DNA of 45,625 nt from an uncultured Planctomycetales bacterium (GTDB taxonomy: Bacteria; Omnitrophota; Gorgyraeia; Gygaellales; Profunditerraquicolaceae): contig CAYOMI010000001.1 in NCBI GenBank assembly GCA_964405005.1, positions 1 to 45,625 on the forward strand, written 5' to 3'. Below are positions 1 through 21,124 of this stretch, piece after piece. The notes under the pieces are model-generated. The model saw only the letters and a list, made by a program, of their open reading frames with translations, did no database searches and was not told the DNA's origin. The stretch's first letter is position 1; every line of letters begins with the position of its first letter. The position numbers and the translations under genes were made by a program.

Positions 1-1115
1 GGAGAATATTATGCGTTGGCGATTCGTTTACTTTTGGGCATGGCGCAATAAAGGGATATTCGTATCCTGAGCAGTTAGAAAGAATACTAAATGACAATAA
101 CTCTATTCATAAATTTATAGTATATAATCTGGGGATTTGCGGAGAAAACTCTTCTCAGTTAGCAAAGAGATTGCCTGGATATTTAGAAGAATACCGCCCG
201 GACATATTAATCGTCTTAACCGGTCTTAACAACGGCTGGAATCTCGATAGTAATTATTTTTTATTTAAAGAGTCCGGTCTAAAGACGTTTGTTTGCCGGT
301 TAGATGCTTTTCTTGCGAGGCTAAGGAGTTATAAACTTTTGAAAATAGGCATCGAAAATTTAAAAATAATTTCAACTAGAAAGCACCTGTTATCTTATGG
401 AAAGTTAAGCAAGGTCCAGGTAGGTAAGAATGTATTTGACGAATCGAAAAGACGCTTTGAGTTAGGGAAATCCTATTGGGAAAGAAGGGATGCGGATTTT
501 GCAATAAAGGAGCTCCAAAAAGCCATAGAAATAGACCCCACATTTTACGAAGCGCATCTTTACTTAGGATACTCCTATGATGCCCAGGGTAAATTTGAGT
601 TGGCGGTAGCTACGTTTAAGAAAGCCATTGAATTAAACCCGAATTGCATTGAAGCCCATAAAGGACTCTGTAATACCTATTGGAAAACTGACAACCATAA
701 GTTGGCATTAAAAGAAGCTCAAGAGGCTCTCAACTTAGATCCTGGCGATGAGTTGCTCAAGAAAATATTACAATATGGATTACCCAATAGAAAAGACGAA
801 GTTTTATTCAACAGATTGTTGAGTTATGATTTACAAAATATAATTAAATTAGGGAAGGCGAAAGGAGCAAAAGTAATTTTGTTAAATTACCCTTTTTATG
901 ATTCCTATGATAAGACAAGAAAAGAAATAGGAAAAATGTATCAAATACCTTTTGTTGATAACGAAGGCGCATTCGTAAAACTGGCTCAATTCCATAATTA
1001 TAGTCGTAAACAGTATTTTCGCGAAGGCGACTCCCATTGTAATAATAACGGTTATATGGTTATCGCTGAAAATGTTTACAGACAGTTAAAATCTGAAGTG
1101 TTGGAGTCAAAATGA
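1..1115 (+). CDS. SGNH/GDSL-family hydrolase with inserted TPR domain (5' end cut by window edge)
   Basis: The frame of ORF 171..1115 stays open back to nt 3. The upstream translation reads RILCVGDSFTFGHG (block I GDS), VYNLGICGENSS (block II) and IVLTGLNNG (block III). TPR-like repeats follow (AIEIDPTFYEAHLYLGYSYDAQGKFELAVATFKKAIELNPNCIEAH...). The C-terminus has LLNYP and GDSHCNNNGY (block V-like). It is a paralog of 5977..7413. The TTG at 171 in the ORF track is therefore internal. Confidence 0.8.
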   Translation, partial: RILCVGDSFTFGHGAIKGYSYPEQLERILNDNNSIHKFIVYNLGICGENSSQLAKRLPGYLEEYRPDILIVLTGLNNGWNLDSNYFLFKESGLKTFVCRLDAFLARLRSYKLLKIGIENLKIISTRKHLLSYGKLSKVQVGKNVFDESKRRFELGKSYWERRDADFAIKELQKAIEIDPTFYEAHLYLGYSYDAQGKFELAVATFKKAIELNPNCIEAHKGLCNTYWKTDNHKLALKEAQEALNLDPGDELLKKILQYGLPNRKDEVLFNRLLSYDLQNIIKLGKAKGAKVILLNYPFYDSYDKTRKEIGKMYQIPFVDNEGAFVKLAQFHNYSRKQYFREGDSHCNNNGYMVIAENVYRQLKSEVLESK

Positions 1116-3886
1116 AAATTGCGCTCATTCAATGCCCGGGGTGGGGCAGGGATTGTCCTCCATATACCGTCGCCCTTCTTTCGGCGTGGCTACGCAGGCA
1201 AGGTCACAAGGTGTTTGGTTTCGACCTGAATAACGCATTATACTGCAGCGGGCCGGATAAATATAAAAAGATGTGGGACGATAAAGACCTGTATTCTTTC
1301 TGGAATAACGAATCGTTGATTTCGCAATTCATTCGCGATAACGAACGGATGATAAAATTTCAGGTCAATTCTATTTTGGAAACACAGGCTAAGATTGTCG
1401 GATTTACCGTCCATTTTAGTTCTTTGCTTGTCAGTTTAGAGGTAGCCAAAAGGATTAAAAACTTGGATAAGGACAGAATTATTATCTTAGGCGGTCCGGA
1501 TTGTTACAGGGAATTGAGGGGGCAAGAGATTATAAAAAAAGATGCGGTTGACATGGTAGTAGTTGGCGAAGGCGATATGGTTCTTTTGGAATTGGCCGAA
1601 ATGATTGAAAAAAACAAAAACGTAGATTTTTGCCCGGGGACATTAATTAAGAAAGACGGTCAAGTTATCGACTGCGGAGAGAGAGAAGTTTTAAAAGATT
1701 TGGATCTTGTCCCTTTTGCCGATTATAGCGATTTCCGCCGCGATATCTTATCGGGATATTATAGACAGCCAGAACGCCTGGAGATATTTGACAGCAGGGG
1801 CTGTATTACGCGTTGCCATTTCTGCAGCGAATGGCAATTCTGGAAGATATACCGCACTATGAGCGGAGAAAGGATGTTCGAAGAAATAGCTTATCAGGTA
1901 AGGCGATTTCCGGGAGTAGATTATTTTTACTTCATCGGTTCTCTATTGAACGGTAACGCCAAGGCGTTATCCAGACTTTGCGATTTGTTAATCCGCAACG
2001 ACTTAAAAATAAGATGGGCAGGACAGGCAATTATCAGGCCTGAGATGACCAAGGAACTTTTAGAGAAGATGGCTAAGGCAGGATGCGAATGGTTAGGTTA
2101 CGGTATTGAGAGCGCTTCTCAGAAAGTGGTAGACAGTATGAACAAGCATTTTTTAATCTCGGATGCCGAAAGGGTCCTTAAGGATTCTCATCAGGCAGGC
2201 ATAAACATCCAGGCCAACTTTATGTTCGGCATACCTACCGAGACAGAGGATGATTTTAAAGAGACCCTAGAATTTTTGAAAAGAAACAGAGAGAATATCG
2301 ATTCTGTTTTAGCAAGTCAATCCTTTTGTGTTATAGATAAAGGGACCTATCTTCATAATCATGCCCAGGAGCTCGGCATTAAAAATGCCGACCATCACCT
2401 TTACTGGGAAACAAACGGTAATAATTATGCCGTAAGGTTCGGGCGCTATGAAGAATTCTGTAAACTGGCGCTTTCTTTGGGTTTACCGGAGACCTCCGGC
2501 GTGCTAAGGACGAAGCCTGACAAATGGGTGCTTTTGGGCGACTATTACTTATTTAAAGAAGACTATTCGCAGGCAATGGAATGTTTTAAAAAATCCCTGG
2601 AACTTGAGTCCTGTAATGACGCTACCCTAGAAAAAATAAAACGATGCCAGAAGGAATTAGAAAGGTCCGGGCGATGTGCCTCTTCTGTATTGTCTTCAGG
2701 AACAAGCAATCTAAAGAGAATTGGAGAAACATCTTCTGAGGATTTTAAAGGTAAGCAAGAGAAGAATACAATTGCGCTCACTACAAAAAGTGATCCCGGA
2801 GATCTCTATAAAGGCCTAAATGAGACTCAAAATAAGATTAAGGAAGCGCTTCTGCGCCTTGGCTTAGAAGATAAATTACACAATTATCTTCTCGTGGAGC
2901 AGGAAAAGGAGGGACGACAGGAGTATGTTTCCGGCTATCCGTATTGGTTGACCATTGACCCCGCAAATTTTTGCACCTTAAAATGCCCTTTTTGTCCTAC
3001 CGGTCAGGGCCGAGGTTCGCGGGTCAAAGAGATATTATCCTGGGATAATTTTAAAAAAGTAATGGACGAACTGGGACGCTATTTAGTCCATATAGATTTT
3101 TGCAATTGGGGCGAGCCGCTTTTGAACAGAGATATTTACAAAATGGTCAAATATGCCAAACAGCACGGCATAGATACAAAAATAGATTCAAACTTTAACC
3201 AATTTAGCGAAAAAGACGCCGAAGACATGATTTTATCCGGATTAGATAAATTAATTGTCTCCCTAGATGGAGTAACCCCGCAGACGTATTCTAAGTACAG
3301 GGTTGGCGGAGATTTTAAGCGGGCAATGGGTAATCTGAAGTTATTGCTTAAAAAAAGGAAAGAATTAAATAAGTCCCATCCCTATATCTCCTGGCAATTC
3401 TTGGTATTTAGACATAATGAGCATGAAATAGAAGAGGTCAAAAAGATTGCCAGTGATTTGGGCGTTGACCACGTCGGCATAACCAAAGCGTTTATCGGTG
3501 ATAAAGACTGGATTCCCCTGAATGAAGAATACAGCCGTTACCAAAAGAAAGAGATTAAGGATGGGTATACCTCAGAACATTTTAAGCCTTCCCAAGATAA
3601 GACATGCAATTGGCCGTGGGAGGCGATAGTTATAAACCCAAACGGTTCGGTTTCCGTTTGCTGTTCGGTGGAAGACGAAAAAGACGACTTCGGTAATATC
3701 TTTAAAAATTCATTTAGAGATATCTGGAATAACGAGAAATACAGGATAGCGAGGAGATATATCAAAGAGAGAGAGGCGATTGATACTGTAAATAACAATA
3801 TTTGTATTGGCTGTAGACACTTAGGATTAATTAATCTGGATATCCTATCTTGCCACTCATTCTTTAGTTGTCCTGGCAAAAAATGA
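1112..3886 (+). CDS. Dual radical SAM fusion: cobalamin-binding-type (class B) rSAM + TPR-like linker + SPASM-like rSAM
   Basis: 924 aa. The N-terminal half has MKIALIQCPGWG, LGGPDC, VVGEGDMVLLEL and the core SRGCITRCHFC (Cys231 codon at 1802). The linker contains one TPR-like motif (WVLLGDYYLFKEDYSQAMECFKKSLELE). The C-terminal half has a second core FCTLKCPFC (Cys621 codon at 2972) and GEPLLN. It ends in a Cys-rich SPASM-like tail (CNWPWEAIVINPNGSVSVCC...NICIGCRH). An ATGA junction overlaps the upstream gene. Confidence 0.88.
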   Translation: MKIALIQCPGWGRDCPPYTVALLSAWLRRQGHKVFGFDLNNALYCSGPDKYKKMWDDKDLYSFWNNESLISQFIRDNERMIKFQVNSILETQAKIVGFTVHFSSLLVSLEVAKRIKNLDKDRIIILGGPDCYRELRGQEIIKKDAVDMVVVGEGDMVLLELAEMIEKNKNVDFCPGTLIKKDGQVIDCGEREVLKDLDLVPFADYSDFRRDILSGYYRQPERLEIFDSRGCITRCHFCSEWQFWKIYRTMSGERMFEEIAYQVRRFPGVDYFYFIGSLLNGNAKALSRLCDLLIRNDLKIRWAGQAIIRPEMTKELLEKMAKAGCEWLGYGIESASQKVVDSMNKHFLISDAERVLKDSHQAGINIQANFMFGIPTETEDDFKETLEFLKRNRENIDSVLASQSFCVIDKGTYLHNHAQELGIKNADHHLYWETNGNNYAVRFGRYEEFCKLALSLGLPETSGVLRTKPDKWVLLGDYYLFKEDYSQAMECFKKSLELESCNDATLEKIKRCQKELERSGRCASSVLSSGTSNLKRIGETSSEDFKGKQEKNTIALTTKSDPGDLYKGLNETQNKIKEALLRLGLEDKLHNYLLVEQEKEGRQEYVSGYPYWLTIDPANFCTLKCPFCPTGQGRGSRVKEILSWDNFKKVMDELGRYLVHIDFCNWGEPLLNRDIYKMVKYAKQHGIDTKIDSNFNQFSEKDAEDMILSGLDKLIVSLDGVTPQTYSKYRVGGDFKRAMGNLKLLLKKRKELNKSHPYISWQFLVFRHNEHEIEEVKKIASDLGVDHVGITKAFIGDKDWIPLNEEYSRYQKKEIKDGYTSEHFKPSQDKTCNWPWEAIVINPNGSVSVCCSVEDEKDDFGNIFKNSFRDIWNNEKYRIARRYIKEREAIDTVNNNICIGCRHLGLINLDILSCHSFFSCPGKK

Positions 3887-4935
3887 AAAAATTGTTATTT
3901 ATATTAGTCTCTTTGCTAATCGGAATAGGATTTACCCTAATATCTCTAGAGTTATTTCTACGGATAAATCCGAAATTTGGATATAATTACAGTTCTTGTA
4001 ATTTCAAAAATAAAGATATGACAAGGTTTAAAGATCATAACTTTGGATATCTTCGTCCTTCAGCGTTGTTGGGTTATGAAATGATTCCCAACTGCCACAG
4101 CGTTTATCTGCCCATACCCACAAATTCTTATGGGTTAATAGGGAAAGAGTATAAACTGAAAAAAGAAAAGAATACTTTTCGTATTTTGCTCCTTGGCGAT
4201 TCAATCGCTTGGCAAGATTTTTCTAGGCAGTCCTTAGAAGGATTCCTGAATAGCGGCCCTTTATTGCATTCGAAATATAAATTTGAAATTTGGAACGCAG
4301 GAGTGCCCAGTTATGATGTGCGGCGTTACTATCTGTATCTAAAATATAGGGGATTAAGTTTTAAACCCGACATGGTGGTTATTTTCTTTTTTATGAATGA
4401 CCTGCATCCTGATTTAAACATTTATTATAAAACTAAAGATGAGGTTATTTCGTATGACTTTCCTCTTTCGGAAATATCCCAGAGGCGTATTATAAATCCA
4501 TTTCTTATGAAACACTCTTTTCTGTATCGTTTCATAGTTTTAAGTCTGAATGCCCGTTTATTAAATAAGAAAAAAGAACAGCAAGGCGTTAATCCACAAG
4601 AAGAATGCGGAAGATACTATTTGCGGGTTATAAAAGAAGTGTGCGAAAAAAATAAAATTCCTCTCTTTATAGTATTTTTCCCTTATCTTAAGCCGCTGGA
4701 TGAATATAGAGGGTACCAGATTGAGGAGTATAAAAGTATCTGCAAGGTAATAAAAGAGTCAGAAGTTAACTGCCTGAATTTATATGAAGCCTTATCTAGT
4801 AGAGACTTACGCAGTTTAAGGGATAGGAAAGAAGATGATGTGCATCCCAGCCGCGAAGGGCATCGTCTTATTGCCACGCTAATTTACAATTATCTGTTAG
4901 ATAATTTTTTTAATTGTGAGAAAACAACACATTAA
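3883..4935 (+). CDS. Membrane-anchored SGNH/GDSL-family hydrolase
   Basis: N-terminal hydrophobic anchor (KKLLFILVSLLIGIGFTLISLELF). Block I FRILLLGDSIAWQ, block II WNAGVPSY, block III FFFMNDL, block V DDVHPSREGH. The preferred start is the ATG at 3883, which forms ATGA with the stop of 1112..3886. The ORF track begins at a TTG at 3868. Paralog of 4916..5953 and 22518..23639. Confidence 0.8.
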   Translation: MKKLLFILVSLLIGIGFTLISLELFLRINPKFGYNYSSCNFKNKDMTRFKDHNFGYLRPSALLGYEMIPNCHSVYLPIPTNSYGLIGKEYKLKKEKNTFRILLLGDSIAWQDFSRQSLEGFLNSGPLLHSKYKFEIWNAGVPSYDVRRYYLYLKYRGLSFKPDMVVIFFFMNDLHPDLNIYYKTKDEVISYDFPLSEISQRRIINPFLMKHSFLYRFIVLSLNARLLNKKKEQQGVNPQEECGRYYLRVIKEVCEKNKIPLFIVFFPYLKPLDEYRGYQIEEYKSICKVIKESEVNCLNLYEALSSRDLRSLRDRKEDDVHPSREGHRLIATLIYNYLLDNFFNCEKTTH

Positions 4936-5953
4936 TAAACTGATAAATTTAAGTCTTCTATTAGGCGGCTTGATACTTTGTTTAGCTTTAGCAGACCTTT
5001 TCTTTCGATTATTTCCTGCGTATGGCTTCAGATATAATTTTAGCCAGTTTGTTATGGAAAATAACCCGACAGACAGGGCAATGAATAGAAATAGAGATTA
5101 TCGTAAGCATAGGCCTTCGTCCATCTTGGGCTATGAGTTAGTTCCTAATTCGGTACCTGAAGTCAATTCTTTTGGCATGGTAGGCAGAGAGCACAGACTA
5201 GAGAAAGACAAAGATACCTATCGGATATTAGTCCTCGGGGATTCAATTACAGAGCATAATTGGTATGTGGAGAAGCTCGAAGATAAATTAAATAATTCTA
5301 ATCCGAAATTAGACCATAAGTTCGAGCTCTGGAATGGAGCTGTTATGGGCTATCAAGTAAATCAATACGCAGCTTATCTGAAGCATAAGGGGCTAAGATA
5401 CCGCCCTGATATGGTTATTATAGGTTTCTGCCTGAACGATTTTGACACCCAGTATTGGGTTTTTTATAAAGATAAAAAAGGATTCACTATATTTTATAAT
5501 CCCGCCCGTAAATTATCGAAGATACTCCCTTTAAATACATTCCTTTTTAAGCATTCTTATCTCTACCGCTTTTTGTTCTTGAGGATAGAAAATTTATTAT
5601 CGAATCCTAAGGAAAAATTCCCCGAACCCAAAACAGAAGGGCTTTATTATCTAAAAACAATAAAAAATATTTGCCAGGAGAAAAAAATCCCGCTTTTGGG
5701 GGTTATTTTTCCTTATCTTAAACGCCTAGACGAATATCGCGATGATGAAATGGATAGATACAAAGAGATGATTGAGGTTTTAGATATTTTAAATATTGAA
5801 TACATAGATTTACATAAATATTTACCTGAAAAAGATAGGTATGCCTTGAGGAGAGATAGAAATGACTACTCTCATCCTTCTATCGAAGGTCACGAAATTG
5901 CAGCTAATATAATTTATAATTATCTTCGCGAAAGTTATTTTAAAAACCGCTGA
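4916..5953 (+). CDS. Membrane-anchored SGNH/GDSL-family hydrolase (tandem paralog)
   Basis: Anchor LINLSLLLGGLILCLALADLFF. Motifs YRILVLGDSITEHN, WNGAVMGY, GFCLNDF and DYSHPSIEGH. It shares HSYLYRF and IFPYLKRLDEYR with 3883..4935. The start is a GTG at 4916 and no nearby ATG exists, so the start is uncertain. It overlaps the upstream gene by 20 nt. Confidence 0.75.
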   Translation: MRKQHINKLINLSLLLGGLILCLALADLFFRLFPAYGFRYNFSQFVMENNPTDRAMNRNRDYRKHRPSSILGYELVPNSVPEVNSFGMVGREHRLEKDKDTYRILVLGDSITEHNWYVEKLEDKLNNSNPKLDHKFELWNGAVMGYQVNQYAAYLKHKGLRYRPDMVIIGFCLNDFDTQYWVFYKDKKGFTIFYNPARKLSKILPLNTFLFKHSYLYRFLFLRIENLLSNPKEKFPEPKTEGLYYLKTIKNICQEKKIPLLGVIFPYLKRLDEYRDDEMDRYKEMIEVLDILNIEYIDLHKYLPEKDRYALRRDRNDYSHPSIEGHEIAANIIYNYLRESYFKNR

Positions 5954-5976
5954 AGATTGATTTAGGATATTCAAAC

Positions 5977-7413
5977 ATGTTTAAGCAAAAAATTTTATTA
6001 ATTTTATGCGCTTTAATAGTTATATTTTTATCTCTTGAAATTTCGTTGCGTGTCGCCGGATTTTTATACTATTTTTATAAAATAAATAACAAAACACTAA
6101 ATTTCAGCGGAAAGAATACAATTAGAATTTTATGCTTGGGCGATTCATTTACCTTCGGCGTAGGCGCAGAAAATGGAAATGATTACCCCCGTCAGTTAGA
6201 ACGATTGCTTAATGAAAATTGCCAAGATAAAAAGTTTATTGTTTATAATCGAGGAATTCCCGGACAGAATTCTTCCATGGTTTTGAAAAGATTGGTCCAT
6301 AATATTAATACATATAGACCCGATACAATTCTTCTTTTAATCGGTTCAAATAACAGAACTGTTTTGGAAGACAGCAATTATTATCTATGTAAAAAAGCAG
6401 AAACCGGCAAAATAATAAATTTTTTCCTAAAGTTAGACATTGCCCTGAGCAAATTACGGACTTATAAGCTGCTCAGGATTGTCACGCTAAATTTAAAAAA
6501 TAAATTTAAATCAATAACCGACTCCTTCGATATCACGGGCAAAAAAAATTTTGAAGAATCCACAGAGAATTTAAATAAAGTCTTTATTGGCGATGCAGAT
6601 AAAAAAGAAGACTACCTCGGCGCAGCGGAAACTCTTTACATAGAAAGAAAGTTTAGCGCAGCAGAAAAAATGATAAAAGAAATGCCAGAAAATTATAAGC
6701 CAGAAGATAAAAGAGTGTGTTTTCTTTTGAGCAACATATATTGCGAACAAGAGAGATATGACTTGGCACTTATTACCATGGAAGAATACATTAAAAATAA
6801 CCCCAAGGATCCAGTTGCACTTTTTAATCTCGGAAGGATTTATTATAAGCGGGGGAGAACAAGTCCTATAGCTAAGGAAGAAAATTTTGAGCAGGCTACC
6901 AGATTATTTGAAGAATCACTCCCCTATATTGACTCGCATAATTTATTGCTGAAAGGAGAAGTCTATTTTAATTTAGCCCAGCTATATCTTGATAAGGGAG
7001 AAAAAGAAGTAGCCATAAAAATGATGGATGAAGCTTTAAAATATCGACCCGACAATAGCGTATTTCGCCAGTTTAGAAGGGTGATATTAGAACCATTTCT
7101 TAGTTCAGAAGAGAATGAAATTTTTGACAAAGTGTTATATTACGATTTAGGTAGCATAATTAACTTATGCCGTTTATACAATGTCACGGTAATCCTTTTG
7201 AATTATCCTTCAGAAAATCAAAATAGCATAAGAAAAGAAATTGCGGATAAGTATAAAGTTCCCTTTATAAATATCGGTTCTGGGTTTGCCGAATTATTAT
7301 CCAATGGATATAATTATAAAGATTTATTTTCTAACGATATAACTCATCCTAACGCAAACGGTTATAGAGTTATGGCCGAGACTGTTTTTGAAGCATTAAA
7401 ACAGCAAATATAA
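5977..7413 (+). CDS. SGNH/GDSL-family hydrolase with ~250-aa TPR insertion, N-terminal membrane anchor
   Basis: Anchor ILLILCALIVIFLSLEISL. Block I IRILCLGDSFTFGVG, block II NRGIPGQNSS, block III LLLIGSNN. A long helical/TPR-like insert follows (e.g. LALITMEEYIKNNPKDPVALFNLGRIYYKRG and YFNLAQLYLDKGEKEVAIKMMDEALKYRPDN). Then ILLNYP and block V NDITHPNANGY. Confidence 0.82.
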   Translation: MFKQKILLILCALIVIFLSLEISLRVAGFLYYFYKINNKTLNFSGKNTIRILCLGDSFTFGVGAENGNDYPRQLERLLNENCQDKKFIVYNRGIPGQNSSMVLKRLVHNINTYRPDTILLLIGSNNRTVLEDSNYYLCKKAETGKIINFFLKLDIALSKLRTYKLLRIVTLNLKNKFKSITDSFDITGKKNFEESTENLNKVFIGDADKKEDYLGAAETLYIERKFSAAEKMIKEMPENYKPEDKRVCFLLSNIYCEQERYDLALITMEEYIKNNPKDPVALFNLGRIYYKRGRTSPIAKEENFEQATRLFEESLPYIDSHNLLLKGEVYFNLAQLYLDKGEKEVAIKMMDEALKYRPDNSVFRQFRRVILEPFLSSEENEIFDKVLYYDLGSIINLCRLYNVTVILLNYPSENQNSIRKEIADKYKVPFINIGSGFAELLSNGYNYKDLFSNDITHPNANGYRVMAETVFEALKQQI

Positions 7414-7421
7414 GCATTGCG

Positions 7422-10196
7422 ATGAAAATTGCACTTATTCAATGTCCGGTTTGGGGAACCTACGATCCGCCGCTTGCCTTAGCTCAGCTTTCTGCCTGCC
7501 TGAAAAAGGAGGGACACGAAGTTTATGTCTTAGACTTGAATATTCAGCTGTATCTTAATCGTAAAGAGAATTATAAGAATATGTGGGCTTGGGAACAATG
7601 CGGTTTTTGGTACGAACCAGCCCATGTCTCAAAATTTTTTGCCGATAATCAGGATGTTATAAATCAATATGTAAATCTCATCCTGAAGAATAATCAAAGA
7701 CTTATCTGTTTTTCCGTGACTACTTCATCCCGGCTTGCCAGCCTGGAGTTAGCGAAGGCAATAAAGAAAGAGAATAAAGACGTAACCATTATTTTTGGAG
7801 GCACATTATTTTTTGAAAAACATTGGATAGAGTCGGTATTGAATGAAGGCGTAGTGGATATCGTGGTACATGGGGAAGGGGAGGTTACTCTTACCGAGCT
7901 GGTAAGTTTACTCGAGGAAAAGAAGCCGCTTGATTCATGCCTCGGCGTGTCTTTTAAAAACGGCAACAGGATATTTAATGGCTCTCCCAGGCCATTTATT
8001 GCAAATTTAGATGACTTGCCATTTATGGATTTCTCCGGTCTTCCTTTGAGCAATTACGATGACGCCGGGCACATCCCTTTTTTGGCTAGCCGAGGGTGCA
8101 TTCAGCAATGTGTATTTTGCAGTTCGAGGGTATTTTGGCCCGGCTACAGGCGAATGAGCGGACAAAGAATTTTTGAAGAAATAGCATTTCATAAAAATAG
8201 AGACAATGAATTGGGGCACATTGATTTTTTGGATCTGATGTTTAACGGCGATATAAAAGCGCTGAGTTCATTTTGCGATCTAATAATTAATTCAGAATTA
8301 AAGGGTAATATATGCTGGGTAGCTAACGTTATCATCAGGCCAGAGATGACTCCAGAGCTTTTGAAGAAGATGAAAGGGGCGGGCTGTAAGCACCTAATTT
8401 ACGGTATTGAGTCGGGTTCGCAAAAGGTGCTGAATCTAATGAAGAAACGTTACCAGATAGAGGATGCCGATGCTGTAATCAGGGCCACTCACGAAGCGGG
8501 GATAGTGGTAACCGCCAATTTTATGTTCGGATTTCCCGGAGAGGAAGAAGGCGATTTTATCAAGACCTTAGATTTTATCAAAAGAAACGCCAAATATTTA
8601 GATAGGGTTTATCCAAGCAGGACCTTTTGCGCCTTAGAAGAATTCAGCTATTTACATACCCACCTGGAGGAATTTAGCATCAAACTTAACCCCCCTAATC
8701 ATCTATATTGGGAATCAGCCGACAATAAAAATATTTATCCCGAACGCCTCAGGCGTTGCGAAGAATTTTGTAAATTGGCCCTGTCTCTGGGGATTGAGGT
8801 AGCCAGCGGCGTGCAAACCTCGGTTGAACTCGACCGCTGGTTTAATTTAGCGCATTATTATGAACACAGGAAAGACGTTAAAAATGCGCTTGATTGTTAT
8901 TTGAAATATTATGAATTGGAACCCAAAAATAAAATAGTAGCAGAAAGGATTATTGACTATTCTGCTGAAATAGAGAAGACCAAAATGGGGCTAAACTTAG
9001 ACTCGGATTTTTTGGCGAAATTCGCAACAGTTGTTAATGCGATTAATTCTAACAGCAAAAGCGATTTATCACCAACAAAAAAATTAGAAAAAATTGGAAG
9101 AGAAAGAAGCATCGCTATAGTGAAAGCTGAACAGAGAGACAATTCGCTACTCAATGACCTCGAATATAACAATAAAGTACCCGTCCTACATTCTACGCCC
9201 AAGGCTTTTTTTCTGCAGGCTTCAGGTCCGTGTAATTCCAGTTGCACATTTTGCTCTCGCGGTAACGACTATGAAATGTTTGACCTAGAAATATACAGAA
9301 AGCGATTTGAGCAGAAAATAAACTTTCATCTTTCCAGGGCCGAACAGATCATCTTTACCGGCTCGGGAGAATTTCTGCTTTTGCCCGAAGCCGAAGAGAT
9401 TTTAGATTATTTCGATATCACCTTTCCGCACGTAAATAAGATGTTTTCAACCAATGGCTCAAGCTTGACTCCGAAGATATGCAAAAAGATAGCCGCAAGC
9501 AGAAGTAAATATACCATACATATATCCCTGCATGCTTCTAATAGCAAACTATACAAGGTCCTTACCCGGACGGATAACTTTTATAAGATTTTAGGACAAG
9601 CAAAATACCTGCTTGAGATTCGCAAAGATACGGGAAACCCGGCAATCTACCTGATATTTGTAGCCACAACCTTAAATATCGAAGATTTACCTAATTTTGT
9701 TAGGCTGGCCGCTCATTTAAAAGCAGATAAAGTAATCTGTTATTATAACTATATATATGTTCCCGCCCAGAAATATCTATCCTGTTTTTTCAAACAGGAA
9801 CTTACCAATCAAATGCTTGATGAGGCGGAAAATATAGCTAAGCAGTTAAATGTAAAGATTGATTTGCCCCCAAGATTCGGTCAGGAGAAATACCACATTT
9901 TAGGTATTTGCCGGGAAGCCTGGGGTCAGATTATGTTTAATCTTGAAGGCCACATTTTGCCCTGCGATGCTTCTGAAGATTGTGATGAAACCCTGGAAGG
10001 GGTTAAATGGTTCAGGGATGCCTGGAACGGCGTTTATTATCAAAACTTAAGAAAATCTTTAGTCGATGGCACAAGCGACTGTTTTAAATATTGCTTCCGG
10101 GCGAATCCGCAAGCAGTTAATGATTTTCGTTCTCATGTCATTCGCCGCGGGAAGAAAGAATCAGAGATAAATATTTTATGGGGAGATAATTTTTGA
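7422..10196 (+). CDS. Dual radical SAM fusion: cobalamin-binding-type (class B) rSAM + linker + second rSAM with Cys-rich C-terminus
   Basis: 924 aa, the same length and layout as 1112..3886. It has MKIALIQCPVWG, VVHGEGEVTLTEL and the core SRGCIQQCVFC (Cys226 codon at 8097). A TPR-like linker is present (WFNLAHYYEHRKDVKNALDCYLKYYELEP). The second core is GPCNSSCTFC (Cys604 codon at 9231), followed by SGEFLLL. The C-terminal Cys cluster reads CREAWGQIMFNLEGHILPCDASEDCDE...CFKYCF. Confidence 0.88.
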   Translation: MKIALIQCPVWGTYDPPLALAQLSACLKKEGHEVYVLDLNIQLYLNRKENYKNMWAWEQCGFWYEPAHVSKFFADNQDVINQYVNLILKNNQRLICFSVTTSSRLASLELAKAIKKENKDVTIIFGGTLFFEKHWIESVLNEGVVDIVVHGEGEVTLTELVSLLEEKKPLDSCLGVSFKNGNRIFNGSPRPFIANLDDLPFMDFSGLPLSNYDDAGHIPFLASRGCIQQCVFCSSRVFWPGYRRMSGQRIFEEIAFHKNRDNELGHIDFLDLMFNGDIKALSSFCDLIINSELKGNICWVANVIIRPEMTPELLKKMKGAGCKHLIYGIESGSQKVLNLMKKRYQIEDADAVIRATHEAGIVVTANFMFGFPGEEEGDFIKTLDFIKRNAKYLDRVYPSRTFCALEEFSYLHTHLEEFSIKLNPPNHLYWESADNKNIYPERLRRCEEFCKLALSLGIEVASGVQTSVELDRWFNLAHYYEHRKDVKNALDCYLKYYELEPKNKIVAERIIDYSAEIEKTKMGLNLDSDFLAKFATVVNAINSNSKSDLSPTKKLEKIGRERSIAIVKAEQRDNSLLNDLEYNNKVPVLHSTPKAFFLQASGPCNSSCTFCSRGNDYEMFDLEIYRKRFEQKINFHLSRAEQIIFTGSGEFLLLPEAEEILDYFDITFPHVNKMFSTNGSSLTPKICKKIAASRSKYTIHISLHASNSKLYKVLTRTDNFYKILGQAKYLLEIRKDTGNPAIYLIFVATTLNIEDLPNFVRLAAHLKADKVICYYNYIYVPAQKYLSCFFKQELTNQMLDEAENIAKQLNVKIDLPPRFGQEKYHILGICREAWGQIMFNLEGHILPCDASEDCDETLEGVKWFRDAWNGVYYQNLRKSLVDGTSDCFKYCFRANPQAVNDFRSHVIRRGKKESEINILWGDNF

Positions 10197-10205
10197 TAAA
10201 TTATT

Positions 10206-11282
10206 ATGTGTAATAGTTGCATATCAGTATTAAAACAAAATTATTTCGAAGGCGCCCTACTTGAAAAGAAGAGTTTTTATATTAATAAAGAACTCAATAA
10301 ATTGGAAACTCAAGAAAAGAGGATAGTGTTAAAATCTAACCCTGTAAACTTGATGATTATCTTGACAAGGCGATGTAATTTAAAGTGTATTATGTGCCCG
10401 CGAATTCACGAAGAAAAGATTGCTTTGCCGTTAGAGTTAGTCGGGAAGCTCTACCCCCTTTTTCCCTATTTAGAATGGATTGATTGGCAGGGCGGAGAGG
10501 TTTTTTTGGTAGATTATTTTAAAAAATTATTTTTGGAAATATCTAACCGCCAACCTCATATATTGCAACATATAACCACTAACGGCTTACTTATAGATAA
10601 AGAATGGGCCGAAATTTTTTCACAATCGAATGTCGATTTACTGTATTCAATAGACGGCGTTACCAAAGATGTTTATGAATACGTAAGAACTGGAGCAAGG
10701 TTTGATGATTTGATAAGAAGTTTAGAGCTAATAAATGAATTCAAAGAAAAACGCGGTAACTATAATAGGTTAGAGATGACCGCGGTAGTTATGAAGTGTA
10801 ATTATAAGAATTTGTCTCTATTCCCGGATTTCTGCAAAAGATATAATTTTAATTCTTTGACGTTGAATTTTTTACAACCCGAAATAATTCCTGAACAGGA
10901 TATCCTTATTAACCCAGACCCTGAAGCCATTTCTTATTTAAGGGTAATCATCCCCCAAATTAAAAATACATGTAAAGAATATAATATCGAATTTAAATGT
11001 ATGTTCGAATCCCGCCTTATAGATTCTCAACAACACCCTTTGGACAAAAATATTAAGGCGGATCCGTATGATTGCATTTATCCTTGGACAAGAATTCACG
11101 TTCAACCCGATGGTAAAGTCTATCCCGCGTGTCAATGTAGTTTAAGCATCGGCGATCTTAAAAATAACACTTGGGAAGATATCTGGAATGGGCATACGAT
11201 GCAATTGTATCGGAATTTAATTTTTAACGGGCGAAGAGAAGAAATTTGTTCTCAGCAATGCCTTATTTATCCCCCTGATTAG
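10206..11282 (+). CDS. Radical SAM protein with SPASM-like C-terminal Cys cluster (type S)
   Basis: Core LTRRCNLKCIMCPR, then WQGGEVFL and TTNGLL. C-terminus CIYPWTRIHVQPDGKVYPACQCSLSIGDL...ICSQQC. Paralog of 13919..14971 and of the C-terminal third of 16797..19715. All three share the N-terminal L-x-QE-[KR]-[KR]-I-x-L-x-S signature. Confidence 0.85.
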   Translation: MCNSCISVLKQNYFEGALLEKKSFYINKELNKLETQEKRIVLKSNPVNLMIILTRRCNLKCIMCPRIHEEKIALPLELVGKLYPLFPYLEWIDWQGGEVFLVDYFKKLFLEISNRQPHILQHITTNGLLIDKEWAEIFSQSNVDLLYSIDGVTKDVYEYVRTGARFDDLIRSLELINEFKEKRGNYNRLEMTAVVMKCNYKNLSLFPDFCKRYNFNSLTLNFLQPEIIPEQDILINPDPEAISYLRVIIPQIKNTCKEYNIEFKCMFESRLIDSQQHPLDKNIKADPYDCIYPWTRIHVQPDGKVYPACQCSLSIGDLKNNTWEDIWNGHTMQLYRNLIFNGRREEICSQQCLIYPPD

Positions 11283-11295
11283 AGTCAATTTTGCC

Positions 11296-12999
11296 ATGGA
11301 ACCCAAAGTACGCTTTACCTGGAACATGCTTTATGACTGTAATTACCGTTGTAGCTATTGTTTTTTTGAGGGTAAATGGCAGGAATATAGAAAGAGAAAT
11401 ATATATCTTTCTCCGGCAGAATGGCTGGAATACTGGAAAGCAATCCGTGATAAATATGGGCCGCCCTATCTTAATATTACTGGCGGAGAGCCTTTCATAT
11501 ATCCTAATTTCATTGAAATAATAAATAAGCTTTCGCAAATCTGTTACCACGTAGATATATCCAGTAATTCCTCCGGCGATTTAAAAACGTTCGTAGAACA
11601 AATAGATCCACAGAGGGTTTCTTTATCGCTTAGTTTCCAGCCCCAGTTCGATATATTAGAAGATTTTATTGAGCGGGTTATTTTCATAAGGAATCATAAA
11701 TTTGAAGGTTGCTTGAATTTTGTGGCATATCCGCCCTTTCTGAAAGATATAAGGGCCTATAAAGATAAGATTAATTTCATCGGAGAGAATTTGAAGATTA
11801 TTCCATTTTTTGGCATATACGGGGGGCGGACATACCCCGGCGCATATACTCAGGAAGAGAAAGAACTGGTTGGGATCAGCGAGGCTTGGTTTGCAAAAGT
11901 TCGAAAAAAGGGATCGCTGTGCCATGCGGGCCAGAAGGCCGCGCTTATTTTTCCTGATGGCAAAGTAACCAGGTGTGGGCAGGTCGGGGAAAATATGCTT
12001 TTGGGAACTTTTTTTGATCCGGATTTCAAGCTTTTAGACAACCCCTTGCCTTGCGATGCCGAATTTTGTCCCTGCGATGAGGATAAAGTATTACCCACGG
12101 ATGGCAATGACAGCGCTACGGCGAAAGTTTTAGAAAACAAATCAGAAACGGAACCCAAAATACAATCAGAGGGGGAGCCTAAAAGAAGTATATACTTCAC
12201 CTGGGATATCCATTATAAATGTAATTTCCGCTGTCCTTATTGCTGGTTTTTTAGAGGATGGGCCGAAGGGGCCAGGCGCAATATATATTTTGCTCCGGAA
12301 GAGTGGATGAAACACTGGAAGAGGGTTTACGATAAATACGGGAAAGTTCATATAGAGATTACAGGAGGAGAGCCTTTTCTCTACCCAAATTTTATTGAAC
12401 TTATAAAATTACTTTCCGATGTTCACTCTGTTAAGGTTACGACCAATATGTCGGGAGATATCGAGACTTTTGTCAGAGAGATTGATCCGAAAAAGGTAAT
12501 TTTAGACCTTAATTTCCACCCCTTGTTTAGCGATATAGATGCGTTTATGAAAAAGACCTTACTTTTAAAAGATGCGGGTTTTAAAGCCGGCGTCTGTTAT
12601 CTTGCCTATCCGCCGCAGATGACAAGGATAAATATGTTCAAAGAGCGCTTTGAAGAGAACGGTATTAATTTTGCCCTCGCCGCGTTCTGGGGCGAATATA
12701 GAGGCAAGAGATATCCGGAAAGTTATACGCCGGAAGAGATAGAATTCATCCGCCCGTTTCTGGGGGATATTGATAGGATTGTCTATCATCTAAAGGGCGA
12801 AAGCCCCAAAGGCAAGTTGTGCAATGCGGGATATAAATACGCAGTTATCCAGGCCGATGGGAAAGTAATCAGATGCGGGCAATTAGCGGATAAAATAATA
12901 AGTAACTTTTTGCACGAAGACTTCCATCTTTTAGATAAAGCTGAACCTTGCGAAGCTGAGCATTGCCCCTGCAATGAGTATGTGAATCTTAGCAACTAG
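11296..12999 (+). CDS. Di-domain protein: two tandem compact radical SAM domains (type A-A)
   Basis: Core 1 is DCNYRCSYCFF (Cys15 codon at 11338), with TGGEPFIYPNF and the tail LPCDAEFCPCDE. An acidic/Ser-Thr linker follows (DGNDSATAKVLENKSETEPKIQSEGEPK). Core 2 is KCNFRCPYCWF (Cys309 codon at 12220), with TGGEPFLYPNF and the tail EPCEAEHCPCNE. Confidence 0.85.
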   Translation: MEPKVRFTWNMLYDCNYRCSYCFFEGKWQEYRKRNIYLSPAEWLEYWKAIRDKYGPPYLNITGGEPFIYPNFIEIINKLSQICYHVDISSNSSGDLKTFVEQIDPQRVSLSLSFQPQFDILEDFIERVIFIRNHKFEGCLNFVAYPPFLKDIRAYKDKINFIGENLKIIPFFGIYGGRTYPGAYTQEEKELVGISEAWFAKVRKKGSLCHAGQKAALIFPDGKVTRCGQVGENMLLGTFFDPDFKLLDNPLPCDAEFCPCDEDKVLPTDGNDSATAKVLENKSETEPKIQSEGEPKRSIYFTWDIHYKCNFRCPYCWFFRGWAEGARRNIYFAPEEWMKHWKRVYDKYGKVHIEITGGEPFLYPNFIELIKLLSDVHSVKVTTNMSGDIETFVREIDPKKVILDLNFHPLFSDIDAFMKKTLLLKDAGFKAGVCYLAYPPQMTRINMFKERFEENGINFALAAFWGEYRGKRYPESYTPEEIEFIRPFLGDIDRIVYHLKGESPKGKLCNAGYKYAVIQADGKVIRCGQLADKIISNFLHEDFHLLDKAEPCEAEHCPCNEYVNLSN

Positions 13000-13037
13000 A
13001 GATTTATCGTTATATTTTAGGAAGATTACAAAGCGAA

Positions 13038-13877
13038 ATGATGGAATTCAATTGGGACATTCATTATAAATGTAATTATAGGTGCCCTTATTGTCCGTTT
13101 TACGGAAAATGGCAAGAAGTATCGCAGGCGAGCAGGTATTTTTCTGTAGAAGAATGGATATCTGCATGGAGGAGGGTCTATAAGAAATACGGGACCGTGC
13201 GTATTATCATGGCCGGAGGAGAACCGATTATCTATCCTTCTTCATTCGCCCTAATTAAAGAATTATCGAGAATGCACCAACTCGATGTAGTTACTAATCT
13301 TTCGTGTTCAAAAGAGGTATTATCTGATTTAATCGGTCAACTTGATGATTCGCATAAATTATCTTTGAGTGCCAGCTATCAGCCGCTATTTACAAGTTTT
13401 GAACTTTTTCTGGAGAAAATATTGATTATAAAAGAAAAGGGCATCCTTGCCGGGATAAACATTGTAGCGTACCCCCCCGCATTGAAACTGTTAGGCTATT
13501 TCAAAGATGAATTCAAAAAAAACGGCTTTAACATAGTAATCTTGCCTTTTAGGGGAGAATACGGCGGAGTTATCTATCCTTATGGATATACAGCTGAAGA
13601 GGCCAGTATGATTTATGATCTGGCTGCCGATTTTCCAATAAAACAGCAGGAACAGCTGGAACAATTCATGCATCCGAATAAATCCAAGGGGAAACTTTGT
13701 TATGCCGGACAGAAATACGTGCATATTGGCTGTGATGCCCAAGTATACAGATGTAACACAGGCGAGCAAAGGATAGGTTATTTTTTCGACGAAAAGCTCA
13801 CCTTTCTGGAACATCCTTTGGTTTGCGAACAAGAAGTTTGCCCTTGCGAATTTAGGTGGCTGGTAAAGGATAATTGA
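13038..13877 (+). CDS. Compact radical SAM protein (type A)
   Basis: FNWDIHYKCNYRCPYCPF, AGGEPIIYPS, AYPPALKL and KGKLCYAGQKY. The C-terminal tail is LVCEQEVCPCEF. 279 aa, single domain. Confidence 0.85.
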   Translation: MMEFNWDIHYKCNYRCPYCPFYGKWQEVSQASRYFSVEEWISAWRRVYKKYGTVRIIMAGGEPIIYPSSFALIKELSRMHQLDVVTNLSCSKEVLSDLIGQLDDSHKLSLSASYQPLFTSFELFLEKILIIKEKGILAGINIVAYPPALKLLGYFKDEFKKNGFNIVILPFRGEYGGVIYPYGYTAEEASMIYDLAADFPIKQQEQLEQFMHPNKSKGKLCYAGQKYVHIGCDAQVYRCNTGEQRIGYFFDEKLTFLEHPLVCEQEVCPCEFRWLVKDN

Positions 13878-13918
13878 CGGGAAATGGACTATTTTTTTGA
13901 TTGCAGCCCATATTAATT

Positions 13919-14971
13919 ATGTATTCTGAATCTAAAAAAGATTCCGGCCTTTTTTTAAATAACAAAGAGATTAATGCGGAAGAGACGAAGGAACGCAAGA
14001 TAACCCTGGAATCCAAGCCTTTGTTACTGGGGATTATAATCAATGATTGGTGTAACCTGGATTGCATTATGTGCCTGGACTCAAGGCATAAAAATCAATA
14101 CGCTTTATCCGTGCCTGCCTTATGGAAAATCAAGGAATTATTGCCTTATCTTGAAAGAATAGATTGGCAGGGAGGAGAATTTTTTCATTTAGATTATATG
14201 AAGGAAATATTCCTGTTTATGAAGGGTTATCCCCATATAAGGCACACCATCACTACAAACGGTTTACTATTAAATGAAGAATGGATAGAATTACTGCTCA
14301 ATTTAAATACGGCGGTGACTTTTTCTATTGATAGCCCCAGAAAAGAAACATACGAATATATACGCCGGGGCGGCAGTTACGATGAATTGATAGAGCGCCT
14401 CAATTTAATTATTGACTTAGAGCAAAAATATAAAAAGAGACTAGAAAGATACCTTACCGTCGTTGTTATGAAGTCTAATTACCTCCATTTAGCTGAATTT
14501 GTTGAGTTCGCAAAAAAATATGGATTTAGTTCTGTGTTTTTTTCTCCTGTGAGACACCTGGAAAATGAAGAAAACATTTTTAAGCATATTAGTGAAGATA
14601 CCCAAAAATACCTTAGTAGGATTATGAGCGAATTGAAATCTCGTTTCGCTGAAAGCGGCATAGAATTTAAGTGTAATCTACCGGAGTCCCATAAGAGGCC
14701 GGATGTTGTTCAGGGCGGATTGCCGATAAAGAAGGAAGGGGATTTATTATGCGATCTCCCCTGGAAAGGGATGTTCATCTGTGCTGAAAGAAATGGCGAT
14801 ATTGTTCCTGACTGCTGGTGTTTACAGCCAATAGGTAATATCTTCCAGAATACTTTGCTGGAAGCCTGGAATAGCCAGAAAATGCAGGAATATCGCAGAA
14901 GAATAGCCGCGTACGATATGGGGCTGTGTAGCGAATGTTATGCGCAAGACCAATATATCAGGTCTTTTTAA
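13919..14971 (+). CDS. Radical SAM protein with SPASM-like C-terminal Cys cluster (type S)
   Basis: Core NDWCNLDCIMCLD, then WQGGEFFHL and TTNGLLL. C-terminus CDLPWKGMFICAERNGDIVPDCWCLQPIGNIF...LCSECY. The preferred start is the ATG at 13919 (MYSESKK...). The ORF track starts at a TTG at 13901. The stop abuts the next gene's start (TAAATG). Confidence 0.83.
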   Translation: MYSESKKDSGLFLNNKEINAEETKERKITLESKPLLLGIIINDWCNLDCIMCLDSRHKNQYALSVPALWKIKELLPYLERIDWQGGEFFHLDYMKEIFLFMKGYPHIRHTITTNGLLLNEEWIELLLNLNTAVTFSIDSPRKETYEYIRRGGSYDELIERLNLIIDLEQKYKKRLERYLTVVVMKSNYLHLAEFVEFAKKYGFSSVFFSPVRHLENEENIFKHISEDTQKYLSRIMSELKSRFAESGIEFKCNLPESHKRPDVVQGGLPIKKEGDLLCDLPWKGMFICAERNGDIVPDCWCLQPIGNIFQNTLLEAWNSQKMQEYRRRIAAYDMGLCSECYAQDQYIRSF

Positions 14972-15904
14972 ATGATTAAACCGCCGCCCGATTTTAGAAG
15001 GGGTATCGCTCCGCATAGGGTATTTTTTAACTGGGAGGTTACTTATAAATGTAATTATAACTGTTCGTATTGCAGTTTTGGGGGTGCCTCTAAGAGAAAA
15101 GAACCGCGGCCCACCGTTTATCCCGGCATAGATAAATGGTTTCAGGCATGGCACAGTATATACCAAAGATACGGCAGTTGCGAAATACATTTTGCTGGCG
15201 GCGAACCTTTTGTCTACCCTGAATTTATGGATTTAATCGAGCAGTTATCCGAAATCCATACGATGGAATTTTCTACAAATCTTTTTTGGGATCCCGATGA
15301 TTTTATAAAGAGAATAAGACCCGGCAGAGCGCGTATAGGCGTAAGTTTCCATTCCGAATTCGTTGATTTTGATACCTTTTTTTTAAAGGCGTTAAGCCTT
15401 AAAGGGGCGGGTTTTGAAGTTTGGGCAAATTATGTTGCCTACCCCCTGTTTATGGAAGGCATGGATAAATATAAGAAAAAATTCGAAGAATCCGGAATAT
15501 CGATGTCTATTTTGCCTTTTAAGGGCAAGTATGACGGAAGGGAATACCCCGAAAGTTACACCCGGCAGGAAAGAGAGTGCCTGAGGAAACTCGGCACATC
15601 CAGTTGGACAGAGAAAACCCTGGATTTCGCTTTTGATAAAGAGAAAGGCAATGTTCGCGATAAGCTGTGTCACATGGGACAGATGTATGCAAAGATACAC
15701 CCCGACGGCGAAGTTTATAACTGCTGCGCGGAAAACGCCTTAAGGTTAGGTAATATTATTGATGGCACGTTCTCTCTATTGGAGGAACCGTTTTTCTGCA
15801 AACAAAGCAATTGTCCCTGTTGGAGGGCTATGGTCGTGGGGAATGCGGGTTATTGGCTGGAACATTGGCCGGTTCCTCCCGATGCAAGATATAATAACAC
15901 GTAG
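14972..15904 (+). CDS. Compact radical SAM protein (type B variant)
   Basis: FNWEVTYKCNYNCSYCSF, AGGEPFVYPEF, ANYVAYP and LCHMGQMYAKIHPDGEVYNCC. The tail is FCKQSNCPCWRAMVVGNAGYWLEHWPVPPD. This tail and the CEIH/ANYVAYP signatures recur only in the middle domain of 16797..19715. Confidence 0.85.
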   Translation: MIKPPPDFRRGIAPHRVFFNWEVTYKCNYNCSYCSFGGASKRKEPRPTVYPGIDKWFQAWHSIYQRYGSCEIHFAGGEPFVYPEFMDLIEQLSEIHTMEFSTNLFWDPDDFIKRIRPGRARIGVSFHSEFVDFDTFFLKALSLKGAGFEVWANYVAYPLFMEGMDKYKKKFEESGISMSILPFKGKYDGREYPESYTRQERECLRKLGTSSWTEKTLDFAFDKEKGNVRDKLCHMGQMYAKIHPDGEVYNCCAENALRLGNIIDGTFSLLEEPFFCKQSNCPCWRAMVVGNAGYWLEHWPVPPDARYNNT

Positions 15905-15936
15905 CTATTTACAGAGTTAAAGCGGAGAAGGCCGTT

Positions 15937-16752: not shown

Positions 16753-16796
16753 TTAAACCAGAAAAGTCTGCCGTTTAAAATAGAATAAAAAGAAAG

Positions 16797-19715: not shown

Positions 19716-19721
19716 TTTAAA

Positions 19722-21098: not shown

Positions 21099-21124
21099 AA
21101 AGCCATAAGGGGGTTAACTAAGAA

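Follow-up and report, generated by a model that had tools for sequence, protein, structure and literature searches.

What do two neighbouring bacterial proteins of equal length, each carrying two radical S-adenosylmethionine (rSAM) cores, do for their host, and is one a copy of the other? The question is raised by the first 10 kb of a 45,625-nucleotide stretch of DNA (the window: contig CAYOMI010000001.1, positions 1 to 45,625, forward strand) from an uncultured bacterium of the Omnitrophota. The two proteins, here called A and B, follow genes for SGNH hydrolases with tetratricopeptide repeats (SGNH-TPR), and the original prediction, made from the DNA alone, took the arrangement for a duplicated module. 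Our comparisons suggest another history and a possible role. On balance we consider it probable that A and B are distinct, anciently separated parts of an rSAM tailoring line for a surface glycan of the Omnitrophota that is exported by Wzm/Wzt, with a split-gene version in the Elusimicrobiota.

Two proteins with two radical SAM cores each

The genes in question, and the modules of A and B, are as follows.

1..1115, +, g3-type SGNH hydrolase with TPR inserted internally, truncated at its 5' end by the window edge (Pfam Lipase_GDSL_2 and TPR)
1112..3886, +, protein A, 924 residues, double rSAM (Pfam, Cys conservation, AlphaFold2, Foldseek, orthologs)
1112..2521, +, A residues 1-470, class-B-type rSAM module
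2522..2671, +, A residues 471-520, TPR-like helical hairpins
A residues 521-585, low-confidence linker
2867..3883, +, A residues 586-924, twitch-like rSAM module
3883..4935, +, SGNH hydrolase with N-terminal anchor, alternative TTG start at 3868 (Pfam, anchor, junction, gene call in related locus L001)
4916..5953, +, second SGNH hydrolase with N-terminal anchor, 41% identical to its paralog at 3883..4935
5977..7413, +, g5977-type SGNH hydrolase with TPR inserted internally and an N-terminal anchor
7422..10196, +, protein B, 924 residues, double rSAM
7422..8822, +, B residues 1-467, class-B-type rSAM module
8823..9047, +, B residues 468-542, helical hairpins
9132..10193, +, B residues 571-924, second rSAM module

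Both reading frames (1112..3886 and 7422..10196) encode exactly 924 residues, as predicted. The common plan that had been read from them, a cobalamin-type rSAM enzyme, a TPR-like linker and a second rSAM enzyme with an auxiliary-cluster tail, was confirmed by Pfam, AlphaFold2 and Foldseek. Pfam placed in each protein a B12-binding domain, a Radical_SAM domain, weak TPR matches around residues 470-503 and a second Radical_SAM core. The Radical_SAM scores were 127.7 bits for A and 113.5 bits for B (cut-off 29.5), over two stretches in each. The B12-binding model (PF02310) scored 44.6 bits in B, above its cut-off of 32.1, and 23.8 bits in A, below it. The four CX3CX2C motifs begin at C231 and C621 in A and at C226 and C604 in B. 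Both are conserved in 28 of 28 A orthologs; in B orthologs the motif of the N-terminal core is found in 32 of 32 and that of the C-terminal core in 26-27 of 32. Five of these 32 lack the motif of the second core (columns C604/C608/C611) yet retain the auxiliary cysteines C788, C830, C848 and C891. In some lineages the second half of B may therefore be a non-radical cluster-binding module.

AlphaFold2 models were computed on ortholog alignments (A: pLDDT 82.5, pTM 0.59; B: pLDDT 85.1, pTM 0.83). In both, helical hairpins and a short disordered stretch connect two rSAM barrels. By Pfam and the models, A and B have a Rossmann-type B12-binding domain N-terminal to the first core, as class-B rSAM enzymes do. 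Foldseek aligned the N halves (A_N and B_N) with the class-B enzymes OxsB, TsrM, MgmA, CysS, AprD4 and TokK over 440-670 columns (E 1e-14 to 1e-18, identity just 11-20%). AprD4, which ranks 11-15 among the matches of A and B, functions without cobalamin despite its class-B fold, and the fold alone is thus no proof of cobalamin use by A or B. In class-B enzymes, C-terminal helical cap domains take part in substrate binding (PMC9204698). The TPR-like hairpins of A and B remain with the N module in unfused orthologs and may correspond to this cap.

The C halves (A_C and B_C) aligned with BlsE, DesII, SuiB, BtrN, viperin and MoaA, the first four being the top neighbours of A_C. In the tail of A, cysteines C832, C850, C851, C898 and C901 are invariant, and C914 is present in 24 of 28 orthologs. 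Pfam SPASM matched this tail with 48 bits (cut-off 21.5), but the CX2CX5CX3C block is absent. The auxiliary cysteines instead follow the twitch pattern, CX17-18C...CX2C, with BtrN-like spacing, and phmmer matched residues 829-904 to the twitch region of BtrN (E 7e-5); a match to DesII was weak. B_C has four invariant auxiliary cysteines (C788, C830, C848, C891) with a spacing unlike the twitch pattern, and the window protein has no Pfam SPASM match. Neither A nor B has the 7-Cys SPASM motif (CX9-15GX4C...CX2CX5CX3C...C). Judged by these patterns, A_C appears to be of a BtrN-like twitch type and B_C of a 4-Cys auxiliary-cluster type.

Recent duplication is largely refuted

Over their full length A and B share 34% identity, with 45% in the N halves, where the TPR linker region can also be aligned, and ~21% in the C halves. 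Each is preceded by an SGNH-TPR gene, as stated in the original prediction, and these two partners are themselves 34% identical (E 2e-57). The closest related locus, L012 (72% identical in A), has the same SGNH-TPR, A, SGNH-TPR arrangement. Together with the common domain order and length, this is what would be expected had a three-part module (SGNH-TPR, an already fused dual rSAM and an anchored SGNH) been duplicated in tandem, with later sub-functionalization of the C halves. The relationships of the two halves do not bear this out. A_N scored 395 bits against the product of the gene at 37750 (g37750) and 388 bits against B_N, and is thus equally close to both; B_N scored 388 bits against A_N and 365 bits against g23636. 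A and B are therefore not each other's closest paralogs. A_N is one of six paralogs of one B12-rSAM family (fam1) in the window and was never the exclusive sister of B_N (0 of 100 neighbour-joining (NJ) bootstraps). The A_N clade was monophyletic in 100 and the B_N clade in 99 of 100 bootstraps, each spanning Omnitrophota and Elusimicrobiota, and g23636 fell inside the common ancestor of A and B in 86 of 100 replicates.

The C halves had been described as strongly diverged. The divergence is real, down to membership of different subfamilies, but the tail of A, which had been called canonical SPASM-like, is twitch-like. A_C groups with the type of g36633; B_C groups with a 387-residue SPASM rSAM of related loci (SPASM387) and with small twitch rSAMs (g10206, g13901 and the third core of a 972-residue protein). 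Each protein has orthologs in many genomes at 45-84% identity, compared with 34% between A and B, and their domains occur as separate genes or in other fusions in the Elusimicrobiota and several Omnitrophota. A repeat at the DNA level was ruled out, since blastn between the A and B modules gave negligible similarity (short 64-69% patches). The shared length of 924 residues is a coincidence, because B orthologs cluster at 922-927 residues and A orthologs span ~875-976.

Two points weigh against too firm a separation. The trees are NJ trees only, of N halves with orthologs from 50 related loci, and g37750 fell inside the most recent common ancestor of A and B in 51 of 100 bootstraps, so that the trees give no firm order of branching among fam1 subfamilies. 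Nevertheless, a recent duplication event is largely refuted, and we regard the proposed module duplication as unlikely. It is conceivable that an unfused pair of B12 and auxiliary-cluster genes was duplicated in tandem long ago, an event other than the one that the original prediction proposed. Going by sequence, A and B appear to be two old, separately conserved components of the array rather than recent duplicates.

Fusion and fission of the modules

Near-full-length fused orthologs of A form more than 80 clusters at 90% identity (50-77% identical to A, ~875-976 residues) and those of B more than 90 (45-84% identical), in Omnitrophota metagenomes. B orthologs are mostly 922-927 residues long, with further classes of ~972 and ~1190-1207 residues. 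The original prediction was to fail if the dual architecture turned out to be common and already annotated with a function. It is common, and larger proteins with three to five cores exist as well, but it carries no defined function, public sources labelling the orthologs merely 'radical SAM protein'. In the related loci the domain order is constant and the gene boundaries shift, with split or otherwise fused domains in some Omnitrophota and most Elusimicrobiota loci:

A split into ~520-530 and ~350-370 residues: L027, L028, L053, L041
B split: L010, L016, L020, L027
B_N, an STM4011-like rSAM and B_C in a single protein of 1188-1197 residues: L017, L018
STM4011-like rSAM fused to B_C: L005, L028
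A_N joined to a SPASM387-type rSAM and A_C encoded separately (Elusimicrobiota): L030, L035, L044, L046

An exhaustive profile-free search returned proteins of 1000-2700 residues with 2-5 matched stretches. One of 2689 residues combines GT2 (glycosyltransferase, GT), TPR and methyltransferase domains, two B12-binding domains, three rSAM cores and SPASM matches. Of two public metagenome proteins, P0241 and P0242, one carries five Radical_SAM cores, three B12 domains and SPASM in 2331 residues and the other four B12-rSAM modules in 2096 residues. In other phyla, fam1 B12-rSAMs occur joined to domains of the carbamoyltransferase, SAM-methyltransferase or GT2 type. On the Nitrospirota chromosome OY760142.1 (L055; similarly L048), a 2735-residue polyprotein at 5183..13390 joins a carbamoyltransferase, a SAM methyltransferase, TPR, a fam1 B12-rSAM, TPR and a SPASM rSAM; it adjoins a 1705-residue protein (13372..18489) with three GT2 domains, GT4 and TPR.

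Since split, triple and 3-5-core versions occur, the dual fusion is one state of a continuum. The moving boundaries point to enzymes that cooperate in one pathway or complex. A and B would each be a Rosetta-stone fusion, as judged by sequence, of a class-B rSAM with its TPR-like cap to its own dedicated auxiliary-cluster rSAM partner. The fusion had been taken to imply two radical steps on one substrate. Action in one pathway is supported, A_N/A_C and B_N/B_C recurring across many genomes as adjacent split genes and in alternative fusions; chemistry on a single substrate may follow from the fusion.

Export genes adjoin the array in related loci

A single co-directional array fills the 45-kb window, all plausible genes of at least 150 residues lying on the + strand. 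It holds 23 CX3CX2C cores in 18 genes, as many fam1 B12-rSAM modules as SGNH genes (six of each), and GT-C and other GT genes. Intergenic gaps are at most 44 nt throughout 1..34978, and the contig begins within the first SGNH gene.

In related loci the array begins further upstream. The order there is FAD (flavin adenine dinucleotide) oxidoreductase, Wzm, Wzt with a Wzt_C domain, giant GT, SPASM387, A, optionally SGNH-TPR, B, optionally a methyltransferase, and STM4011-like double rSAMs. The giant GT has 1500-2200 residues, with GT2, GT2 and GT4 domains and one or two C-terminal rSAM/SPASM domains; SPASM387 follows it unless fused to it. SGNH-TPR often lies between A and B, and a Methyltransf_24/CmcI-like protein often follows B. 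Wzm/Wzt or the giant GT was found in every Omnitrophota locus with enough upstream sequence (e.g. L005, L007, L009, L015, L025, L027, L053). L012 has the giant GT, SPASM387, SGNH-TPR (g3 type), A and SGNH-TPR (g5977 type). PMT_2 GT-C genes recur in the array, at 25139 and ~44065 in the window and in L019, L027 and L053.

Two side observations concern these neighbourhoods. The methyltransferase gene after B (L007 17003..18967; also L014, L015 and L027) encodes 654 residues, the C-terminal half of which is weakly rSAM/twitch-like (NCBIfam E 2e-9 to 5e-7); the window has no such gene. In three Elusimicrobiota loci, proteins of 1500-2000 residues with Beta_helix/NosD repeats are encoded directly upstream of A_N (L036 913..5475, L040 4473..9926, L043 3942..9992). 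They may be a substrate, a lyase/epimerase or surface proteins.

SGNH hydrolases as accessories

All SGNH proteins of the window, the TPR type included, have one N-terminal hydrophobic segment, unlike the rSAM proteins, in which none was found. The SGNH-TPR proteins carry their TPR array between SGNH blocks III and V. The GDS motif and the block III Asn are present in all six SGNH proteins and DxxH in five, the product of 1..1115 having DSH; in that of 5977..7413 the motifs are GDS at residue 57, GSNN at 123 and DITH at 454. Pfam Lipase_GDSL_2 exceeded its cut-off in five of the six genes, and 22500..23639 passed on Lipase_GDSL.

An anchored SGNH had been predicted after the first copy only. 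One does follow A, but as two tandem genes (3883/3868..4935 and 4916..5953), and there are more at 22500 and 39413. Likewise, the ATGA overlap said to couple SGNH-TPR to the fusion is real at 1112, but the second pair is separated by an 8-nt gap; the stop codon of A overlaps the next SGNH start as ATGA at 3883. Overlaps at B12-rSAM/SGNH junctions number four or five across the window (ATGA at 1112, 3883 and 23636; 11 nt at 22500 and 39413), and the pairing is lost in many relatives. As a sign of stoichiometric co-production the overlap is weak evidence, since the whole 1..34978 array is tightly packed, since SGNH genes adjoin A and B or lie between them in ~9 of 18 informative Omnitrophota loci, and since the SGNH proteins are anchored whereas the rSAM proteins have no hydrophobic segment. 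Because of this frequency, and because most Elusimicrobiota loci have no SGNH genes, we regard the SGNH genes as accessories. Orthologs of the 1..1115 type lie upstream of A in L012 and L028, and those of the 5977..7413 type between A and B in L007, L009, L012, L014 and L015.

Comparison with known enzymes and systems

None of the rSAM proteins tested reached the cut-off of an NCBIfam rSAM model, and Pfam likewise assigned no specific rSAM family. GenK and GenD1 are cobalamin/rSAM C-methylases that act on sugars (PMC5819394). The N halves of A and B share with these gentamicin C-methylases, with OxsB (deoxyribose ring contraction), and with TsrM, TokK, CysS and MgmA, an N-terminal B12 Rossmann domain, a CX3CX2C barrel and a C-terminal helical domain. 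From the genomic context, a sugar substrate for A and B is plausible. They differ from these enzymes in that the module is joined to another complete rSAM enzyme and, as seen in relatives, lies in a polymer-export locus rather than in an antibiotic cluster. A_C resembles BtrN, a 2-deoxy-scyllo-inosamine dehydrogenase, in auxiliary cysteine spacing and by its phmmer match. Its similarity to BtrN, DesII and BlsE is nevertheless weak (15-18% identity), and the cysteine pattern of B_C is different.

The F0 synthase FbiC is a fusion of CofG and CofH in which two rSAM cores catalyse consecutive steps; in other lineages the cores are encoded by separate adjacent genes. A and B are like FbiC in having two complete rSAM cores per polypeptide that are split elsewhere. 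They are unlike it in belonging to unrelated sequence families, in their B12 domain and auxiliary-cluster tail, which FbiC does not have, and in their interchangeable fusion partners, with up to 3-5 cores.

In O-polysaccharide (O-PS) systems that depend on an ABC transporter, such as E. coli O8/O9a and the Klebsiella O-antigens, Wzm acts with a Wzt that binds carbohydrate through its C-terminal domain, with GT polymerases of several domains and with a methyltransferase that caps the chain. The array of the relatives similarly has Wzm, Wzt with Wzt_C, a giant GT2-GT2-GT4 protein and a Methyltransf_24/CmcI-like protein, co-directional with A and B. We know of no O-PS system with rSAM domains on its polymerase or ~20 rSAM cores downstream.

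The seven small cores at 11296..18600 have the STM4011 family (NF038073) as their best curated match, but all score 64-147 bits (best 147.1, 141.4, 89.5 and 63.9), below the cut-off of 200 bits; that family is itself without an assigned function. The parts of the locus are thus of known kinds, namely class-B rSAM, twitch/SPASM rSAM, SGNH and O-PS-type export. Their combination, ~20 rSAM cores, some of them polymerase-fused, in a glycan-export locus, is undescribed.

Glycan, peptide or lipid

We favour a glycan substrate because the array of the relatives joins Wzm, Wzt and the giant GT, and because rSAM/SPASM domains are fused to that GT. The BtrN match, the sugar-acting structural neighbours of A_C (BlsE, DesII, BtrN) and the precedent of GenK and GenD1 point the same way, as do the PMT_2 GT-C, GT9, GT2 and GT4 genes inside the array and the lack of room for a precursor peptide.

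Several observations weigh against this reading. The window has no wzm, wzt or giant GT gene. Its contig is cut within the first SGNH gene, the exact protein was not found on any longer contig, and the link of the window to Wzm/Wzt therefore rests on relatives. No sugar-nucleotide synthesis genes were found in the window. In the Elusimicrobiota, a beta-helix protein occupies the place of the giant GT upstream of A_N. The topology of the SGNH proteins by the positive-inside rule is ambiguous, since basic residues occur before and after the anchor. The locus was not found described in the literature on Omnitrophota/Elusimicrobia rSAMs or on rSAMs with polysaccharide genes. The best sub-threshold NCBIfam matches of the N halves are C-methyltransferases of RiPPs (peptides made on the ribosome and modified after translation), TIGR03975 (150.8 and 148.8 bits, cut-off 281.85) and ApyD, and the top structural neighbour of B_C is the peptide maturase SuiB.

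The last two points, with SkfB as a further structural neighbour and the giant beta-helix proteins next to A_N in the Elusimicrobiota, could mean that maturation of a ribosomal peptide, or of a large secreted protein, is the task of the array, the class-B enzymes acting as C-methyltransferases and the SPASM/twitch enzymes as cross-linkers or epimerases. TIGR03975 and ApyD are indeed the best-scoring curated families for the N halves, but their scores are about half the cut-off or less, and the genomic context is another one. No ORF of precursor size is present in the window and the gaps of 1..34978 leave no space for one; a PqqD/RRE domain was not reported for A or B in the Pfam scan; and neither a protease nor a peptide exporter is present. 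In relatives, moreover, rSAM cores are covalently joined to GTs in an array contiguous with Wzm and Wzt_C. We set the peptide reading aside for want of a precursor, space, protease and exporter, and rate it as improbable.

Other sub-threshold matches are to HpnJ, a ladderane-type lipid B12-rSAM, HpnR and Tes, and a DUF3463 tail of HpnH type is seen on the rSAM at 33830. These would fit an array that makes or modifies a small molecule or lipid (for instance a polymethylated or cyclized membrane lipid, a side chain like that of hopanoids or a new cofactor), with GTs that merely decorate it. An earlier proposal that rSAM-rich Elusimicrobia loci make a cofactor (Méheust et al., 10.1101/765248) also counts for this, although the rSAM-plus-NifH loci of that study differ in context from the present array. 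All the family matches lie far below their cut-offs, and Wzt_C and the multi-GT polymerases indicate a polymer. This alternative was set aside as the window and the 20-kb related loci hold neither lipid/isoprenoid backbone genes nor nitrogenase-like genes, and we give it very little chance.

The comparisons establish domain identities, cofactor motifs, orthology, the patterns of fusion and fission and the gene neighbourhoods, whereas the substrate and the whole of the chemistry are inferred. On the favoured glycan reading, the giant GT2-GT2-GT4 polymerase would assemble a lipid-linked glycan at the cytoplasmic face. The auxiliary-cluster rSAM would remove a sugar hydrogen in a BtrN/DesII/BlsE-like manner (oxidation, decarboxylation or epimerization), and the class-B module would next methylate or rearrange the residue, as GenK, GenD1 or OxsB do. 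Fusion would hold the hydrogen-abstraction and the methylation/rearrangement steps on one residue. Wzm/Wzt would export the finished polymer, and anchored SGNH and GT-C enzymes at the membrane would be variable accessories for O-acyl handling and side-branch glycosylation. A wider proposal, which we put forward tentatively, is that the Omnitrophota and Elusimicrobiota may make a surface polysaccharide in which more than 20 rSAM cores, docked on the polymerase or even fused to it, extensively remodel the sugars through many C-methylations, oxidations, epimerizations or C-C cross-links, with A and B as conserved core two-step units.

The rest of the window

Downstream of B the array continues with the following features.

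10206..11282, +, stand-alone SPASM/twitch rSAM of the same broad subgroup as B_C
11296..19715, +, STM4011-like rSAM run: seven cores in five genes, plus two SPASM/twitch cores
19722..25120, +, three more fam1 B12-rSAM paralogs (19722, 21125, 23636)
22500..23639, +, anchored SGNH between the fam1 paralogs 21125 and 23636
25139..26833, +, PMT_2-type GT-C membrane glycosyltransferase (family recurs in related loci)
26778/26850..28322, +, PRK07208-like FAD oxidoreductase (family recurs in related loci)
28338..34978, +, three B12-rSAMs of a second family (fam2), two proteins with three hydrophobic segments, and an rSAM with a DUF3463-like tail
36633..40471, +, third module copy, unfused and permuted
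36633..37691, +, SPASM rSAM of the third copy, best window match of A_C
37750..39423, +, B12-rSAM with a TPR tail (g37750) of the third copy, co-best match of A_N
39413..40471, +, anchored SGNH of the third copy, 11-nt overlap with the preceding B12-rSAM
40810..45625, +, glycosyltransferases of GT9-like, GT2 and GT4 type, followed by the second PMT_2-like GT-C

The run at 11296..19715 contains a 567-residue double and the 972-residue triple rSAM fusion. Rfam and tRNA scans of the window returned no non-coding features. The second PMT_2-like protein (~44065..45625, +) runs past the window end and is 27% identical to that of 25139..26833 over residues 10-207 (E 5e-11); its gene is missing from the ORF list because it is open-ended. 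Mid-array, 32659..33810 (+) encodes two adjacent paralogous small proteins with three hydrophobic segments each, only the first of which (32659..33210) has a Pfam winged-helix domain (HTH_45-like, C-terminal). The pair may be membrane-tethered regulators. A remnant of a fam1 B12-rSAM N-terminus lies at 40572..40700 (+), within the 338-nt gap before GT9 (tblastn to g37750 residues 15-53, 44% identity, E 2.8e-5), and probably represents a fam1 paralog that has decayed. The array has only three gaps of notable size. One of them, the 235 nt after 34978, contains a short ORF (~35017..35094, +) that ends ...RMHSSLDYQPPI and looks like the C-terminus of an IS3-type transposase (integrase core).

Significance

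Sameness of length and of domain order was not evidence of recent duplication here. rSAM chemistry on carbohydrates has so far been known mainly from small-molecule antibiotic pathways (GenK, BtrN, DesII, BlsE), and a radical glycan assembly line, if true, would be without characterized precedent. A and B are well-defined, soluble-looking proteins of ~924 residues with confident models and are fit for reconstitution. If the array acts on an exported polymer, it would add a whole class of polysaccharide modifications, its natural fused and split enzyme pairs would help to work out which rSAM steps couple, and it would in part explain why two poorly understood phyla carry so unusual a load of rSAM enzymes.

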